From a bacterium (GTDB lineage: Bacteria > Patescibacteriota > Patescibacteriia > Patescibacteriales > GWE2-39-37), in NCBI GenBank assembly GCA_037146995.1, contig JBAWWA010000004.1:4077-68076 (forward strand): a stretch of DNA of 64,000 bases, read 5' to 3'. The position numbers and the translations under genes were made by a program. Shown here piece by piece: positions 9,369 to 53,535 of the stretch (its first letter is position 1; every line of letters begins with the position of its first letter). The notes below the pieces were generated by a model. It made no database searches and was not told the DNA's origin. It saw only the letters and a list, made by a program, of their open reading frames with translations.

Positions 9369-10400
9369 ATGATTAACGTTGAAAAATTAGGCTTACTACT
9401 TGAGCCGACGGCAAATTTATTTGAATCGAGGGCTGTTTTGAATCCTGCAGTTTATCAAGAGGGTAATGATGTGCATATTATCTATAGAGCAATTGATGAT
9501 AAATATGTCTCTTCTTTGGGTTATGCGAAATTGCAGGGGCCAACCACTATCGTTGAGCGCTGGGATAAACCTTTCATGTCGCCAAAAATCAAGGCAGAAT
9601 CAATGGGCATAGAGGATCCGCGAATTGTCAGAATTGATGGTATTTTTTATATGACCTATGTCGCCCATGACGGTAAAAATGCGGTTTCATATTTAGCTTC
9701 AGGGGATAATTTGTTTGAACTTGGTCGAGATGGCTTGATTAGTCCGAAGATTCCTTACAAAGAGGCAGGGGAGATTTTTCGCTATCAGAAATTGAAAGAT
9801 GATTATTATTTTTTTGAGGCATTTTATAAAGAATATGGTGGGAAAAATGTTTTAATCTGGCACAAGGACTCAATTTTATTTCCAGAAAAAATCAATGGAG
9901 AGTTTAAAATGCTGCAAAGGATTTTGCCAGATATCCAGCTTATTGGTTTCGAAGATTTCGGGTCATTAAAAGAGAAATATTTTTGGATAAATTACCTGTT
10001 AAATGATTTGGCAAGCAGTGTGGTGTTAGAGGGGCAACTTAGTTTTGAGGGGCGAAATATTGGCGGTGGTTGTCCGCCAATTAGAACAAAAGATGGTTGG
10101 CTTGTTATTTATCATGGCGTTCAGGAGTCAAATGAAAAACGTGTATATCGAGCTTGTGCCGCCTTGCTTGATTTGAATAACCCACAAAAATTGATTGCAA
10201 AATTGCCATACCCATTGTTTGAGCCAGGTAATGAGGCGGAAAATGTCGGCTTGGTAAATAACGTTGTTTTTCCTACTGGAACTGCGCTATTTGGCGATGA
10301 TCTGTATATATATTATGGCGCAGCAGATACTAGAATCGCTGTGGCAAAAGTCAGTCTAGAGTCGTTATTGAGCGAATTAAAAAATAATCCATTTCATTAG
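9369..10400 (+). CDS. Glycoside hydrolase family 130-like (beta-mannoside phosphorylase-type) protein
   Basis: GH130-like blocks NPAVY..IYRA, GIEDPRIVRIDGIFYMTYVAHDG, YYGAADTRIAVA. I chose ATG 9369; the longer TTG 9327 ORF overlaps the helicase gene. Confidence 0.7.
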   Translation: MINVEKLGLLLEPTANLFESRAVLNPAVYQEGNDVHIIYRAIDDKYVSSLGYAKLQGPTTIVERWDKPFMSPKIKAESMGIEDPRIVRIDGIFYMTYVAHDGKNAVSYLASGDNLFELGRDGLISPKIPYKEAGEIFRYQKLKDDYYFFEAFYKEYGGKNVLIWHKDSILFPEKINGEFKMLQRILPDIQLIGFEDFGSLKEKYFWINYLLNDLASSVVLEGQLSFEGRNIGGGCPPIRTKDGWLVIYHGVQESNEKRVYRACAALLDLNNPQKLIAKLPYPLFEPGNEAENVGLVNNVVFPTGTALFGDDLYIYYGAADTRIAVAKVSLESLLSELKNNPFH

Positions 10401-28182: not shown

Positions 28183-28274
28183 TTGTTTGACGATGTTTTA
28201 AATCGATAAAAATAAGTTTTTTTGGATTTTTTTATGCAAATAGATTATGGCAGAACAGGGAATGATAGTGACGA

Positions 28275-28293
28275 CGCAGCGATTTTGCCGAAC
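28275..28293 (+). repeat. Copy 1 of a perfect 19-nt direct repeat CGCAGCGATTTTGCCGAAC
   Basis: Identical to 28940-28958. Here it is followed by its own small hairpin TGCCGA-acgta-TCGGCA (28286-28302). Confidence 0.9.
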
Positions 28294-28424
28294 GTATCGG
28301 CATCTCCTTAATAAAAAATAAAAGGGTGGGGAAATTTGAGCCGAGGGAAATTAACTTTCCATTTAAATATGAAAGTGTCGATTTTAAGATCCAGATATGC
28401 CGTGTTCTACGATGTTTCTCAAAA

Positions 28425-28730
28425 CTACTTCTTTATCGGCTCGCACCATTGATAGCTATCCAAACATTTCATCTCATTACGCACATATCCATCACCACAA
28501 ATGTTATTTTCGCTTAGCTTGTAGTTGCCTGCTTTCATAGCACCAACAGACGAAATACAACAATCATCATATTTATTTTTTGACTCACATTTTTTTGCCA
28601 ACTCATCATAATAATCGCCGACACTTGTAACTTCAACTTTTTTATTTAAATGCGTAACTACGTATAATCCAACAGCTGAGGCAACTATAATCGCCCCGAC
28701 TAATAAAACAATCTTCGTTAATTTTTTCAT
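28425..28730 (-). CDS. Small secreted Cys-rich protein (101 aa)
   Basis: N-terminal signal/anchor helix (KIVLLVGAIIVASAVGLYVV) and 7 Cys in the mature part. Lies between the two 19-nt repeat copies. Confidence 0.6.
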   Translation of the reverse strand: MKKLTKIVLLVGAIIVASAVGLYVVTHLNKKVEVTSVGDYYDELAKKCESKNKYDDCCISSVGAMKAGNYKLSENNICGDGYVRNEMKCLDSYQWCEPIKK

Positions 28731-28766
28731 ACGTTTTTAAATGAATAGTTTTGAGAAATTTCGCCC

Positions 28767-28958
28767 AATGGGCCCGGGCTTATGCGAAGTGGCGCCCGCG
28801 ATAGCGAGGCGACATTTCGCATAAGCCCGAGTTCGGCGATGTCGTGGTGACTGCCGAAGGCGGGCGACGCGGCATTGACGGACTCGGGGAACCCGGGCCC
28901 ATTCGGCAAATTAGCGGAGCTGCGAGCGAGAGCGAGAGGCGCAGCGATTTTGCCGAAC
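28767..28958. other. GC-rich multi-helix element (candidate structured ncRNA, folded-DNA recombination site, or MITE)
   Basis: Nested perfect helices: 28767-78/28892-903 (12 bp), 28779-88/28816-25 (10 bp), 28826-32/28882-88 (7 bp), 28832-37/28853-58 (6 bp), 28902-10/28949-57 (9 bp), 28919-24/28940-45 (6 bp). No known RNA-family signature recognised. Confidence 0.6.
28940..28958 (+). repeat. Copy 2 of the perfect 19-nt direct repeat CGCAGCGATTTTGCCGAAC
   Basis: Identical to 28275-28293. Forms the 3' side of the last helix of the GC-rich element. Confidence 0.9.
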
Positions 28959-28964
28959 TCGTTA

Positions 28965-28988
28965 TTATGCGAAGTTTTTTTCGTATAA
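28965..28988. other. 9-6-9 inverted repeat with the geometry of a tyrosine-recombinase core site (dif/att-like candidate)
   Basis: TTATGCGAA (28965-73) - GTTTTT - TTCGTATAA (28980-88). The same 9-mer forms the helix at 28780-88/28816-24. Lies 80 nt upstream of the recombinase ATG. Confidence 0.4.
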
Positions 28989-29005
28989 CATGCCAAATTG
29001 GCATG
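28989..29005. promoter_or_regulatory. Perfect 17-nt palindrome CATGCCAAATTGGCATG upstream of the recombinase gene (operator or binding-site candidate)
   Basis: Read directly: 8-nt arms around a central A, immediately abutting the 9-6-9 repeat. Confidence 0.4.
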
Positions 29006-29068
29006 AAATAGGAAGTTTTGTTAAAATTATTGTAATCATTAACTTTTTAAATTATACCCTTAAATTGT

Positions 29069-29887
29069 ATGAAAAGGGAAGAGTTGCTTCGGCGGATTGA
29101 AAATGAGTTTCGTTTGCGAAATTATAGTCGGCGAACTATTAAGAGCTATTTGGCCTGTTTGGGTGAGTATTTTAAATATATAAAAGAAGTAAATGATCGG
29201 CCGGATGTTGGTAAAATCAAGGATTATCTGCTGACAAAGTTTGACGCTGGTCAGTCATCGAATACGATTAATGTGCACTTGCATGCGATTAAGCATTTTT
29301 ATGAGCAGTTGATGCATTCGTTAGTGAAGATTGAAATTAAATTTGCCAAAACCGCCTCAAAATTGCCAGTTGTGCTTTCGCGGGAAGAGGTACATCGAAT
29401 AATCGACCTGACGCACAATATAAAACATCGTTTAATGCTCGCTTTGGCCTATGCAGCCGGTATGCGCGTTAGCGAGGTAATGAATCTGCGAGTCAAAGAT
29501 ATAAATGAGAGTGAATTAATTATTCATATCAAGGGTGCAAAAGGGAATAAAGATCGGATTACTGTTTTTCCTGAGAAGCTTTTGGGGGATATTCAGATAG
29601 TTTTGAATGGTAGAAATATTAATGATTTTGTCTTCGCAAAGGTGAATGGTGAAAGATTAACTGAGAGGACAGCACAAATGGTGTTTGGGCAGGCGCTAAT
29701 GCGAGCAAATATTCAAAAAGACGCTTCTTTTCATTCACTTCGACACTCCTTTGCGACGCATTTACTGGAAAATGGCGTCGATCTGCGCTATATACAGGAG
29801 CTACTTGGTCATGCTAATATCAAGACTACACAAATTTATACGCATGTTACTAATCCAGGGTTAAAAAATATCAAGAGTCCGTTTTAA
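29069..29887 (+). CDS. Tyrosine site-specific recombinase, IntI/XerD-like (SAM-like N-domain plus catalytic domain), lacking the integron-integrase-specific insertion
   Basis: LAYAAGMRVSEVMNLRVKDI..IHIKGAKGNKDRITVFP, catalytic HSLRHSFATHLLENG, LLGHANIKTTQIYTH (R..HxxR..Y). The stop overlaps the dus start (TAATG). Confidence 0.9.
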   Translation: MKREELLRRIENEFRLRNYSRRTIKSYLACLGEYFKYIKEVNDRPDVGKIKDYLLTKFDAGQSSNTINVHLHAIKHFYEQLMHSLVKIEIKFAKTASKLPVVLSREEVHRIIDLTHNIKHRLMLALAYAAGMRVSEVMNLRVKDINESELIIHIKGAKGNKDRITVFPEKLLGDIQIVLNGRNINDFVFAKVNGERLTERTAQMVFGQALMRANIQKDASFHSLRHSFATHLLENGVDLRYIQELLGHANIKTTQIYTHVTNPGLKNIKSPF

Positions 29888-30858
29888 TGTTTATGTCTAA
29901 TTTTTGGCAACAATTGAAGAATGCTGGTCAGCCAATCTTGGCGCTGGCGCCCATGGCAGGCGTTTCTGACAGGCCTTTCCGCCAAATTTGTAAAGAGTTT
30001 GGGGCTGATGTTTTGTATTCTGAGATGGCAAGCGCAACGGCCCTGAATTACAAGCCTGAGAAGACTTTAGAGCTAGTCAAATTTGATCGCGAGATTGAGT
30101 CGCCTTATGTGGTTCAACTTTTTGGCTCTAATCCGGAGTATTTTGCTAAAGCCGCTCGGATGATTACTGAAGTCATTCGACCAGGCGGGATCGATATAAA
30201 TTTTGGCTGTCCTGTGCCCAAGGTGCAAAAGCAAGGGGCGGGGGCGGTTTTGATGGGCAATCCAAAATTGGCACGTGAAGTGGTTGAAGCGACAATGAGC
30301 GGTACTAGTCTCCCAGTCTCGATCAAAATTCGGGCTCGCATGGAAAAAGGCGAGGGTGATGCCAAGCGTCGCGTTGATGCCTTGGAGTTTTTGGAAACTA
30401 TGAACGGTTTACCGATTGCTGCCGTGATGATCCATGGCCGTTCGATGGCGCAGGGCCATGTCGGCAGTGTTGATTTTCAGATCATCAAGGACGCTCGACA
30501 GTATGTAGCTGGAGTTTTACTAGCCAATGGCGGAGTTATTGGTGTGGCGAGTGCCAAGCAAATGCTCGTCGAGACAGGTGCTGATGGTCTTGGAGTGGCA
30601 CGCGGGGCTATGGGCAAGCCATGGATATTTGAGCAAATAAAATTGCAAGCAGAAAAGACGTGGGCAAGCGACAGAATATTTGAGGCGGCGCTCAAGCATG
30701 CTGAATTGGCTGATCGACTACTTGGCCAACAAGGCATTATAGAGCTGCGCAAGCATTTGTGTTGGTATATGACTGGTTTTGCTGGTGCGGCAGAGTTGCG
30801 CAGTCGCCTAGTACATGTTCAGACGCTTGAGGAGATTAGATCGATATTAAAAAGTTAA
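29887..30858 (+). CDS. dus: tRNA-dihydrouridine synthase
   Basis: LAPMAGVSDRPFR, VQLFGSNPE, DINFGCPVPKV, IHGRS. An alternative ATG lies at 29893. Confidence 0.9.
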   Translation: MFMSNFWQQLKNAGQPILALAPMAGVSDRPFRQICKEFGADVLYSEMASATALNYKPEKTLELVKFDREIESPYVVQLFGSNPEYFAKAARMITEVIRPGGIDINFGCPVPKVQKQGAGAVLMGNPKLAREVVEATMSGTSLPVSIKIRARMEKGEGDAKRRVDALEFLETMNGLPIAAVMIHGRSMAQGHVGSVDFQIIKDARQYVAGVLLANGGVIGVASAKQMLVETGADGLGVARGAMGKPWIFEQIKLQAEKTWASDRIFEAALKHAELADRLLGQQGIIELRKHLCWYMTGFAGAAELRSRLVHVQTLEEIRSILKS

Positions 30859-30909
30859 AATAAAAAAAATCGCTTGAAGCGATTTTTTTATTTGCCGTGC
30901 TTGATAAAA

Positions 30910-31878
30910 TTAGAGCCATTTTTTACGTTTGAAAATCATGATAATCGAAAAGGCGACAACGCCCATAATACCGACTATGACCCAGAAGGCATAGGGCCGA
31001 TTAACGATGGGCATGTTTTCCGTCCGCATCGCGAACAGGGCGGCGATGAAGGTCAGGTAAAAACTGATGATCGAAAAGACGGTCAAAGTCTTCATAATCT
31101 CTGACAAACGGTAGTTGAGGAGTGATTCGTTCGTGCTATTGAGAATCTCAATCGTTTCTTTTTGATTTTCGAGTATTTCCCAGATGGTGATCGAGTAGTC
31201 GATTAATTTTTTGTAGCATTCTTGGAGTTGTTTGGGCGAGACCAGCGTCGACTTCATCTCCATTAACTTGGTGATGATTTTTTTATGTGAATGCATGGTC
31301 GTGCTGAAATTGATGACGTTGTGCCTGAGAGCCAGGATTTCCGAGACTGCTTTTTTGGAGTCTTGTTGAAAAATTCTTTCTTGGACGCGTCTAATCTCTA
31401 GACTGATTTGGTCAAGCAAAGGGAAACAGCCATTGAGTAATTTGTCCATTAGTTCATAGAGCAAGATACTAGAAGACTCTAGCTTATAAGAAAGCAAACC
31501 TTCACCGTCTTTTTTGCATAAGCTAAAAAAATCAGTTAGGGCGGGTAAGTTGCCATTGTGAATTGTGACTAAAAAGCCATGACCAATGAAAAAATCAACC
31601 TCGGTTACGATCACCGTATGGTCGATGATGATGGGAAAATGGAGGACAGCAAAAATATAACCATCATAATGGTGAATGGCGGGACGTTGGGTAAAAACAT
31701 TAGCCGAGCACTGTTGCAGGTGGGTCAGCTGGAAACCGAATTTTTTGCGTAAATACTCAATTTCTTTTTTGCCAGCATTAACAACATTAACCCAAGCCAC
31801 TTTTTTGTTGATGGTTCTCGGGTTATCAATGGCGATTTCTTGGATGTTGCGCGTAAGCAGTATTTCCTCCTTGGGCAT
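30910..31878 (-). CDS. CorA-family divalent-cation transporter homologue with AMR in place of the GMN signature
   Basis: C-terminus YLTFIAALFAMRTENMPIV..KRKKWL aligns by eye with CorA PLTFIAGIYGMNFEYMPEL..KKKKWL. Start taken at ATG 31878 (MPKEEILL), 6 nt after a TATAAT box. Confidence 0.8.
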   Translation of the reverse strand: MPKEEILLTRNIQEIAIDNPRTINKKVAWVNVVNAGKKEIEYLRKKFGFQLTHLQQCSANVFTQRPAIHHYDGYIFAVLHFPIIIDHTVIVTEVDFFIGHGFLVTIHNGNLPALTDFFSLCKKDGEGLLSYKLESSSILLYELMDKLLNGCFPLLDQISLEIRRVQERIFQQDSKKAVSEILALRHNVINFSTTMHSHKKIITKLMEMKSTLVSPKQLQECYKKLIDYSITIWEILENQKETIEILNSTNESLLNYRLSEIMKTLTVFSIISFYLTFIAALFAMRTENMPIVNRPYAFWVIVGIMGVVAFSIIMIFKRKKWL

Positions 31879-31960
31879 AAAAATATTATAGCACAATTTG
31901 ACAAAAACGGTAAAATTTTTTAGGGTAACCATGTTCTTTAAATTAAAATGGAGGTGACGC

Positions 31961-32722
31961 TTGAAAAAACTCAATAAGATAATTGTTTTAAAAATTGGCT
32001 CGAAGGCAGTGACCAAAGATGGTTATATCAATAAGCCGTTGCTTTTGAATGTCTCTCGCGATATTAAATTAGTTAAAGCTAGGGGGTACGAGGTAGTGGT
32101 TGTCTCATCAGGTGCAGTGACTTGCGGCAGGACCCTATATCAGTCAGTGTCTAAAAAGGTTTTGAGTGATCAATGTCTTGCAATGATCGGTCAGCCGCTA
32201 CTGATGCAACATTGGACCTGGGCCCTTGAACATCATGGCCAAATTGTCGGTCAAGCGCTATTTACGAATTCGGCCTTGAAAAGCGAGTTGCGCAGACGCT
32301 CGGTTTTGATGGGGATTAATGATTGTTTACTAGCTGGCATAGTGCCAATTGTTAATGAAAATGATGCAGTAATTACGGATGAACTCAAGGAGATTGGCAC
32401 CGAAGGGGATAATGATCAGGTTTCGGCAAATTTAGCCATTGGGCTTGAGGCGGAAATGCTGGTTTTCTTAACTACCGTGCCCTATGTTGAAGACCCAGTT
32501 ACTGGCACGGCGATAAAAATTATTGAGGCAAGTAACGATACTCTGGAAAAAACTTTAAGCAGAAGACAAGGTGATAGCAGCGGTGGCATGGCCTCAAAAA
32601 TCAAGTATGGCCGGAAATTTGCCATGACGGGAGGCGAAGCGATAATCAAGCATTTTAGTTGCAATTTGCCAATGAGTCGCATTATGAGTGGTCTCTATGA
32701 AGGCACAGTTATTAAACGATAA
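31961..32722 (+). CDS. proB: Glutamate 5-kinase (amino-acid-kinase fold, no PUA domain)
   Basis: IVLKIGSKAVT, VVVSSGAV..GR, PIVNENDAV, GDNDQVSANLA, GGMASKI. TTG start with GGAGGTGA upstream. Confidence 0.8.
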   Translation: MKKLNKIIVLKIGSKAVTKDGYINKPLLLNVSRDIKLVKARGYEVVVVSSGAVTCGRTLYQSVSKKVLSDQCLAMIGQPLLMQHWTWALEHHGQIVGQALFTNSALKSELRRRSVLMGINDCLLAGIVPIVNENDAVITDELKEIGTEGDNDQVSANLAIGLEAEMLVFLTTVPYVEDPVTGTAIKIIEASNDTLEKTLSRRQGDSSGGMASKIKYGRKFAMTGGEAIIKHFSCNLPMSRIMSGLYEGTVIKR

Positions 32723-32802
32723 ATATTTAACACTGACGAAAAGTCAGTGTTTTTTTATATTTAGTAAATTGTGGTATAATATAACTTAACTGTGTATAAA
32801 CT

Positions 32803-33303
32803 ATGGCGACAGAAAAAGTTGTTAATAATTCTGAAAATCAATCGATTGACGGACGAATCATGAAAGTTGACGAGAGTCAGTCTTTTGAGCGTAGACCAGA
32901 CTTGCCAAGTCAAGCAATAGAACGCAGTGATAATAGTCAGGATGAAGGTGTTTCCAATAAGGAAGTCAAAAGCTCAGGTAGTCGTCTACCGTTACCAGTA
33001 CCGCCAAGTCTTGCCAGCTCTGAACAAGAAAAGAAAATTGAAAATATTTTAGCTCGCGACGTGGTTGAGTTGTACAAGGGTTTGAAAGATGCGGACAAGC
33101 TAAAATTCAAAAAAGAGGGCGAAACGACCGCTAAAAAAATCAGTAGTTTACTAGACGAGGGTAAGGTGCAAGTTTCTAAGATTTTTAATTTAATTAAAAA
33201 TTGGCTTAGTATGCTGTCTGGAGTAAATAAATACTTCATCGAGCAGGAGGCCAAAATCAAAGTTGATGAAATTATTCAGCTCAAGAAGGGGGGTGAACAA
33301 TGA
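32803..33303 (+). CDS. Hypothetical protein (166 aa), low-complexity N-terminus; translationally coupled to the pilin-like gene
   Basis: ORF only; ATGA overlap with the next gene at 33300-33303. Confidence 0.55.
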   Translation: MATEKVVNNSENQSIDGRIMKVDESQSFERRPDLPSQAIERSDNSQDEGVSNKEVKSSGSRLPLPVPPSLASSEQEKKIENILARDVVELYKGLKDADKLKFKKEGETTAKKISSLLDEGKVQVSKIFNLIKNWLSMLSGVNKYFIEQEAKIKVDEIIQLKKGGEQ

Positions 33304-39258: not shown

Positions 39259-39329
39259 TCGGGGATCGTCTAGTGGTAGGACAACAGGTTCTGGTCCTGT
39301 TAACTGAGGTTCGAATCCTTGTCCCCGAG
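39259..39329 (+). tRNA. tRNA-Gln (anticodon CUG), CCA not encoded
   Basis: Cloverleaf folded by hand: acceptor UCGGGGA/UCCCCGA with U1-A72 and G73, D stem GUCU/GGAC, anticodon arm ACAGG-UUCUGGU-CCUGU, T arm UGAGG-UUCGAAU-CCUUG. Confidence 0.9.
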
Positions 39330-39375
39330 CATAAAGCAAAAAATGATTCAATAAATTTATTAATAAAATATTTGT

Positions 39376-53067: not shown

Positions 53068-53535
53068 ATGAGAGGAAAACCAGCAGTTAAAAGAAAAATT
53101 GAGCCAGATGTAAAATATAACGATGTTGATGTAGCAAAATTTATCAATTACATCATGCAGGATGGCAAAAAATCAACGGCTCAGCGCGTTGTTTATGATG
53201 CTTTTGAAATTATTAAGGATGTTACAAAGCAAGATCCACGCCACATTTTCAACAAGGCGATGAAAAATATCGCTCCGCTAGTTGAGGTGCGTGGCAAGCG
53301 TGTCGGTGGTTCAAACTATCAAGTGCCATACCAAGTGCGTGGCGATCGTCGCTTCGTCTTGGCTTCACGTTGGGTGATTGCCGCCGCCAAGGCTCGCGGT
53401 GGACGTGCGATGTCAAAACTATTGTCAGACGAATTACTGGCCGCCTTTAAAGGTGAGGGTAATGCCATCAAAAAGCGTGACGATGTTCACAGAATGGCTG
53501 AATCAAACAAGGCTTTCGCCCATTTTTCACGTTAA
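53068..53535 (+). CDS. rpsG: 30S ribosomal protein S7
   Basis: DGKKSTAQRVVYDAF, PLVEVRGKRVGGSNYQVP, NKAFAHF. Confidence 0.97.
   Translation: MRGKPAVKRKIEPDVKYNDVDVAKFINYIMQDGKKSTAQRVVYDAFEIIKDVTKQDPRHIFNKAMKNIAPLVEVRGKRVGGSNYQVPYQVRGDRRFVLASRWVIAAAKARGGRAMSKLLSDELLAAFKGEGNAIKKRDDVHRMAESNKAFAHFSR

Follow-up and report, generated by a model that had tools for sequence, protein, structure and literature searches.

To date, the closest described relatives of the locus reported here are the single-recombinase Xer modules, the pdif modules of Acinetobacter, the IMEX of the CTX-phage type, and integrons. In XerS/difSL, XerH/difH, and XerA/dif, a single Xer-type recombinase is paired with a near-palindromic site beside its gene (PMC5357621), and the present locus has the same organization. 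However, the sites of these modules are found in the terminus region, whereas no skew switch is present here, and cassette arrays have not been described for them. The pdif modules are small accessory-gene modules between Xer-type sites of alternating orientation, some of them without an ORF; both features recur here, and the left-arm sequence, ATTTCGTATAA, is essentially identical (PMC13141974, Table 1). Yet, pdif modules are plasmid-borne and depend on XerC and XerD, whereas the array described below is chromosomal and accompanied by a single recombinase. Their 28-bp sites have identical or nearly identical spacers, in contrast to the differing central regions of the joined partners here, and they possess neither a hairpin element nor an adjacent recombinase gene.

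The CTX-phage-type IMEX of Vibrio cholerae resemble the present cassettes in having no recombinase of their own and in using the host Xer site. At the XerC-type arm, they exchange a single pair of strands, and the resulting junction is resolved by replication (PMC3442271, PMC4246890). Their attachment region, with two head-to-head dif-like sites able to fold into a forked hairpin, would be a further point of likeness, as would the regeneration of the target site, which makes tandem arrays possible. The cassettes here differ in lacking phage or replication genes, in being served by one recombinase rather than by XerC and XerD, in lying at a site away from any skew switch, and in their size of 0.2–2.7 kb.

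In integrons, the primary site adjoins the recombinase gene, and promoterless-looking cassettes stack there, mostly pointing away from it. Each cassette has an imperfect palindrome 3′ of its cargo, with fixed mismatched bases and strand-biased folding, and partner sites do not need identity in their central regions. All of this is also seen here, where the arm end, RYYYAAC, moreover resembles the inverse core.

The recombinase gene and its dif-like site

The window, i.e., the whole 64-kb stretch of DNA analyzed here, has its best protein matches in metagenome genomes of Patescibacteria (CPR). It encodes a Xer-like tyrosine recombinase of 272 aa (29069–29887, + strand), which is closest to archaeal XerA, and no other tyrosine recombinase. 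The protein matches Pfam Phage_integrase at 3e-43, and its best structural relatives in the PDB are XerA of Pyrococcus and Thermoplasma (4a8e and 5hxy). The NCBIfam XerA model is its best match in that collection, at 216.4 bits, just under the cut-off of 220. The catalytic R-K-H-R-H-Y set is complete, and 43 orthologs share R133, K158, H222, R225, H248, and Y257 without exception; these proteins are highly conserved across CPR phyla, with a mean column identity of 74%. The extra domain specific to IntI was not found: TIGR02249 scores 201 against a cut-off of 265 with its match in two stretches, and the approximately 70 IntI positions between these stretches face only about 15 residues of the recombinase. 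VchIntIA (2a3v) likewise aligns in two stretches. The stop codon of the recombinase gene overlaps the dus start (ATGA, 29884–29890), and the gene order recombinase-dus-corA-proB is retained in close relatives (loci L001, L163, and L164), although in L164 an inserted Zincin_1 gene separates dus from the recombinase gene. The sole RNA gene detected in the window is tRNA-Gln (CTG) at 39259–39330.

A promoter is predicted for the recombinase gene at 28998–29027 (+ strand; 10/12 matches, TG present), consisting of the −35 hexamer TTGGCA (28998–29003), an 18-nt spacer, and TAAAAT ending at 29027, with the extended −10 TGTTAAAAT at 29019–29027. The spacer holds a degenerate right-type arm, AAATAGGAAGT (29006–29016). 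The −35, the extended −10, and the arm-like ATGCGAAT of the spacer are conserved in relatives, and the arm-like motif may enable the recombinase to regulate its own gene.

The initial annotation had drawn attention to a 9-6-9 inverted repeat upstream of this gene, followed by a perfect palindrome, and had proposed that the repeat is a core site of the kind used by tyrosine recombinases. Upon re-reading of the sequence, its coordinates are exact: TTATGCGAA at 28965–28973, GTTTTT at 28974–28979, and TTCGTATAA at 28980–28988, with the G-to-A asymmetry between the arms giving a G·T wobble on the + strand. The palindrome CATGCCAAATTGGCATG (28989–29005) has an 8-1-8 layout, and repeat and palindrome together lie 64–104 nt 5′ of the recombinase ATG (29069). 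The 9-mer is also present, as claimed, at 28780–28788 (+ strand) and 28816–28824 (− strand), and a window scan found one further, unrelated copy at 9521. A count of four 9-mers is unremarkable alone, being reached in 4/100 shuffles; for the whole arm-6-arm pattern, the shuffles give an expectation of 0.00. Chance does not account for the 9-6-9 repeat.

For comparison, 160 related loci were gathered. A common site, tATTTCg.ATAAC/TCgTTttTAT.CGAA (slash, predicted crossover point), was curated upstream of 48 CPR recombinase orthologs sharing 44–79% identity. The version of the window, ATTTTGCCGAAC-TCGTTA-TTATGCGAAGT, occupies 28947–28975 and has a near-palindromic layout of the dif type, with arms of 11 nt on either side of 6–7 nt. 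In the consensus, the reverse complement of the left (L) arm matches the right (R) arm at 9/11 positions with TTAT/ATAA facing the center, a near-palindromic form that is expected for a single recombinase. The L-arm consensus, ATTTCGnATAA, is the XerC-arm form of the Acinetobacter pdif sites, ATTTCGTATAA (PMC13141974, Table 1). A strict regular expression for the site found it in 19/63 CPR loci and in 0/78 control windows, and likewise in none of the regions upstream of 42 distant homologs from DPANN archaea, Spirochaetes, and Bacteroidota (0/42). No other complete core site is present in the 64-kb window, in which partial or inverted ones lie within the array described below. Generic L-arm scans of the window gave matches at chance level, since the arm carries too little information; they were replaced by locus-specific searches with each locus's own L arm.

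In the window, the primary site is composed of the left arm L3, GCGATTTTGCCGAAC (28944–28958, + strand), with the predicted crossover directly after 28958, the central region TCGTTA (28959–28964, + strand; consensus TCgTTt), and the right arm R3, TTATGCGAAGT (28965–28975, + strand). The left 9-mer of the 9-6-9 repeat is R3, the right arm of this core, and the right 9-mer is part of L4, an extra left-type arm, TTTTCGTATAAC (28978–28989, + strand), which is inverted relative to R3. As judged from these sequence comparisons, the repeat is the edge of a conserved dif-like recombination site adjoining the Xer-like recombinase gene. Thus, the proposal of an att-like region held in so far as dif-type arms are present and a matching site lies by the recombinase gene at 48 orthologous loci, but the core itself had been misplaced: it is the overlapping L3-TCGTTA-R3 unit at 28947–28975, with its predicted crossover between 28958 and 28959.

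It is very improbable that the 9-6-9 repeat is itself the core site with the 17-nt palindrome as an accessory site, although the repeat is statistically non-random and the R3/L4 hairpin is retained with compensatory changes in relatives at 77–79% identity. Compared with any Xer-type core, the arms of the repeat are turned inside-out: TTATG borders the spacer in dif but lies at the far end of the arm here. Every mapped junction lies at 28958/28959 and none within the repeat. The conservation upstream of orthologs anticipated for the repeat applies to the core-type site (48 loci), whereas the R3/L4 hairpin is clear in only about 18/48 loci and reaches z < −2 in only 11/48. L4 is thus optional and varies between lineages, an extra inverted arm retained in only some of them. 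The palindrome (28989–29005) is not conserved, even among the relatives at 77–79% identity. It occurs once in the window and overlaps the predicted −35; this lineage-specific sequence may be an operator.

A chromosomal dif function deserves more weight than this, although we consider it on the unlikely side. The site would then serve a single-recombinase Xer system in dimer resolution, as in XerS/difSL and XerH/difH, and the nearby repeats would be integrated elements exploiting Xer, or remnants thereof. The arms are of the dif type, and the palindromic form of the site suits a single recombinase (PMC13141974, Table 1). The module of gene and site is that of XerS and XerH and of some XerA systems (PMC5357621). 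The recombinase is the sole one of its class in the 64-kb window and shows 74% mean column identity across CPR phyla, and the Xer-related “Cand” recombinases of CPR are assumed to replace Xer (PMC8138268). GC skew argues against it. The initial annotation had asked for a check of whether the locus coincides with the skew terminus, but no switch is seen, the skew being +0.156 left of the site and +0.144 right of it; it is positive throughout the window, the cumulative skew is monotonic over 64 kb, and a sign change was seen in only 4/11 other loci, with weak values. A terminus dif role is therefore unsupported within the 64 kb. This reading overlaps with the explanation preferred below, to which it adds a dimer-resolution function.

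The probable cassette array and its fixed junction point

Upstream of the primary site, the window is parsed into two putative cassettes, one at 28294–28768 with a cargo ORF (ORF101) and a cargo-less, GC-rich one at 28769–28958. The distal boundary of the array is marked by L0 (28275–28293, + strand), a left-type arm with its flank, CGCAGCGATTTTGCCGAAC, which is an exact 19-nt direct repeat of L3; the two copies end in AAC at 28293 and 28958, and the distal crossover point lies between 28293 and 28294. It is followed by E0 (28294–28403, + strand), the imperfect-palindrome (E) element of the distal cassette, which begins with GTATCGGCAT and ends with ATATGCCGT, carries the family motif AAATTTGAGCCGAGG, and has a decayed right-type arm; its ends resemble the E element of L090. 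Next to it lies L2′_0 (28404–28420, − strand; reverse complement GAGAAACATCGTAGAAC), an inverted left-type arm of the ACATC class and the inverted-repeat partner of L1. ORF101 (28425–28730, − strand) specifies a 101-aa protein with a hydrophobic N-terminal segment, for which a Pfam search gave no match. The cassette closes with L1 (28747–28768, + strand), a left-type arm with its flank, AGTTTTGAGAAATTTCGCCCAA, whose junction with the next element is at 28767–28769; a second assembly has GCGTATAA at this L1/E1 junction instead.

The proximal cassette opens with E1 (28769–28830, + strand), a GC-rich hairpin with the stem arms TTATGCGAAGT (28780–28790) and ATTTCGCATAA (28814–28824). The reuse of the 9-mer in this region, to which the initial annotation had pointed, is meaningful, as those copies are the stem arms of the E1 hairpin site. 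E1 is of a GC-rich type also found in L037 and does not contain the AATTTGGG motif of most E elements, showing that the E families are heterogeneous. The adjoining L2′_1 (28831–28844, − strand; reverse complement CGACATCGCCGAAC) is again an inverted left-type arm of the ACATC class and, together with the right half of E1, forms an inverted dif-like site, GAAC-TCGGGC-TTATGCGAA. The GC-rich interior (28845–28943, + strand) has no ORF and contains degenerate extra arm copies, e.g., CCCATTCGGCAAAT. What had been described as a GC-rich structured element is, on this parse, the predicted cargo-less cassette. The strongest GC island of the window, which has 39% GC overall, extends from 28743 to 28983. 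The second-highest and only other island, at 53269–53445, was considered as a further copy and rejected; it is the coding sequence of ribosomal protein S7.

The same architecture recurs across loci. The locus's own L arm is found again upstream in 20/48 loci, and homology stops at AAC every time. Indeed, own-L-arm matches number 23 in 146 kb upstream versus 0 in 231 kb downstream of the gene. The recombinase gene is directly preceded by arrays of 2 to at least 5 units; in the complete genome of a Wolfebacteria member (L005), a 191-nt unit occurs three times, and in L031 a 244-nt unit occurs twice. Toward the recombinase gene, the order within a unit is direct arm, crossover, E, crossover, inverted arm, interior or cargo, direct arm, and crossover. 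E elements measure 63–184 nt, interiors or cargo from 2 nt to 2.5 kb, and whole elements 0.2–2.7 kb. Inverted arm copies, extended by 30–90 nt of flank, bound the cargo. In 16/17 cases, the inverted arms read ACATC where the direct arms read ATTT(C/T), within otherwise well-matched repeats, as illustrated in the window by the ACATC-class arm at 28831–28844 and the direct arm at 28944–28958. The repeated units explain why assemblies break just upstream of the recombinase gene: contig ends cluster 100–200 nt upstream of it in 16/80 loci, versus 3/80 in the same bin downstream, and several contigs begin 0–8 nt from the AAC end.

Defense systems are otherwise considered scarce in CPR genomes. The cargo found at other loci includes three type II restriction-modification systems, all complete, which are HinP1I-like, BglII-like with a C protein, and ThaI-like (cassettes of L098, L107, and L117), as well as a radical SAM protein, an Asp/Glu racemase, a VanW-like protein, and small ORFs. 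Cargo genes are almost always oriented away from the recombinase gene. No recombinase gene is encoded within the cassettes, no phage or replication genes were found in their cargo, and viral contigs scanned for the E motif and the core site gave no match.

A second assembly of the same organism (contigs from sample ERZ27300110) bears on the crossover point. One of its contigs, L166, is 99.9% identical to window positions 28243–28958. Beyond ...GATTTTGCCGAAC, where the window continues into its own central region, TCGTTA, L166 has a different E element, an inverted arm, a 148-aa ORF, and an arm ending in GCGTATAA, followed by E1 again; the extra E element belongs to a family also present in L083 and L023. 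Contig L001 starts with GCGTATAA joined to E1 and is then 100% identical to window positions 28767–32887. The predicted point is thus exactly where one and the same arm meets two different right-hand partners. The central regions of the joined partners differ (TCGTTA vs. GTGTCG...), such that a two-strand exchange would leave mismatches, a situation that fits a one-strand exchange. Either the window reflects a genuine variant having fewer cassettes, or a duplicated 192-nt unit was collapsed during its assembly; other assemblies, L002 among them, break inside this unit. The alternative junction arm, GCGTATAAT, was also sought in the window, where only unrelated matches were found; it is explained by the extra cassette of L166. 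A single difference between the window and L166 lies at 28907, in an arm-like segment of the cassette interior (CCCATTCGGCAAAT vs. CCCATTGGGCAAAT). L166 positions 1512–1567 (contig k141_229285, ERZ27300110) end in a Nextera transposase adapter, ...TCGTCGGCAGCGTCAGATGTGTATAAGAGACAG, a contamination of the public assembly; once L166 is turned to the window orientation, this end falls to the left of window position 28243.

In more than 12 loci, the cargo is enclosed by inverted arms with 30–90 nt flanks, and contigs break at the site. Both would be seen if the recombinase flipped the cargo between inverted arms, as an invertible DNA switch for phase variation comparable to the Mycoplasma Xer1 systems or shufflons. 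This has little to recommend it. Frequent flipping would not fix the orientation of the cargo, which almost always points away from the recombinase gene. The inverted site pairs differ in their central regions and right arms, and some of the supposed segments are just 2–35 nt long. In addition, direct-repeat arrays and added cassettes are better explained by integration. The 9-6-9 repeat probably marks the recombinase-proximal end of a cassette array, in which cassettes without a recombinase of their own integrate at L3/TCGTTA/R3 through a top-strand crossover between 28958 and 28959.

Folding and mobility of the E elements

The E elements are mobile: they share 83–87% identity between loci whose recombinase genes share only 56–59% at the DNA level. 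Upstream, 51 copies of the E motif AATTTGGGYGRAG lie on the + strand, with no more than 5 copies per locus, versus 24 in all other compartments. The motif is conserved where two variable sub-hairpins of E meet, as seen in L107, L109, L098, and L099 and at 28331–28345 of the window. Head-to-head sites flank E, and the 11-bp stem beside the crossovers is formed by 315/319 Watson-Crick pairs in 29 E elements with 17 distinct sequences, so that covariation in E is strong. The arm stem has a fixed T·G wobble and a T-T mismatch, which are the defects that ACATC opposite ATTT(C/T) produces if the arms pair, and the top strand has about three extra bases (GTT) at the crossover. In L009, the E element, located approximately 1.5 kb upstream of the recombinase gene, contains the hammerhead core motif CTGATGAG after the junction motif, which is probably a coincidence.

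Folding is biased toward one strand. The recombinase-sense (+) strand folds better in 27/29 E elements with either RNA or DNA parameters (p about 1e-5), and in the GC-rich region of the window the + strand folds at −150.8 kcal/mol (z = −11.6) compared with −110.6 kcal/mol for the − strand. This bias suggests a single-strand recombination of the attC or CTX-phage kind, and an RNA made in the direction of the recombinase gene would fit it too. Both observations would be expected if the GC-rich element and the two hairpins downstream of it acted as a structured noncoding RNA, as a terminator-containing leader, or in regulating the recombinase transcript. We nevertheless regard an RNA function as improbable. 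No Rfam family matches the element: with Rfam 15 at the gathering score, the window and 10 related loci yielded nothing but tRNAs, and a search of the region at a permissive E-value gave only chance-level microRNA and snoRNA matches. The site contains neither a tRNA nor a tmRNA. A terminator-like T run is absent, and a terminator was set aside as a reading of the hairpins, with no terminator-like site found in 28200–29120. Moreover, the conserved promoter is situated 3′ of the element, neither strand is favored in the R3/L4 hairpin when the loci are compared (26 vs. 21), and the boundaries of the elements coincide with recombination junctions, the elements being repeated with cargo.

Under the favored explanation of an integrating cassette array, the recombinase would bind both arms (L and R) of the chromosomal site and cleave at the boundary between the L arm and the central region. 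In the circular form of a cassette, top-strand folding of the direct L arm together with E and the inverted arm could yield a hairpin that mimics the duplex site; the hypothetical circle junction would place the cassette's own L arm on its own E, e.g., ...GATTTTGCCGAAC/TGGGCCCGGG. At none of the loci was a circular cassette or an empty site seen directly. One strand pair would then be exchanged with the chromosomal site after AAC, and replication would complete the integration, as in the integron attC × attI or the CTX-phage attP(+) × dif1 reaction (PMC3442271, PMC4792948). Such a route would reproduce the observed arm order and regenerate the primary site for the next insertion.

Relation to integrons and implications

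Despite the features shared with integrons, several differences are evident. The recombinase here is Xer- or XerA-like, without the IntI-specific insertion, and is highly conserved in a housekeeping-like manner; its arms are dif-type 11-mers. The E elements, 63–184 nt long with a conserved junction motif, have no sequence homology to attC. Furthermore, the crossover splits the palindrome, whose outer stem becomes the terminal inverted repeats of the integrated cassette. We place the system among the site-specific cassette platforms; it works with dif-type arms and an enzyme of the Xer family. A search of the literature, the coverage of which is incomplete, found no account of such an arrangement.

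Tentatively, and with somewhat less than even confidence, the loci may represent a Xer-based “proto-integron” widespread in CPR/Patescibacteria, in which a conserved Xer-like recombinase captures cassettes at its own dif-like site through recombination of a folded single-stranded DNA hairpin (E and arms) with the duplex site. If true, the system would represent an extant intermediate linking Xer/dif to integrons. The integrases of integrons are considered to be derived from Xer-like recombinases (PMC4792948), and a natural Xer-family system that stacks hairpin cassettes by its own gene would make the Xer-to-integron transition testable. The site and the E elements provide a simple signature for locating further arrays. 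To our knowledge, the routes of horizontal transfer in CPR bacteria are poorly known. The system, if it operates as proposed, would be a main route of gene gain, e.g., of restriction-modification systems, in the reduced genomes of CPR, and it would give CPR gene acquisition a defined hotspot and a mechanism, with defense systems among the cargo.
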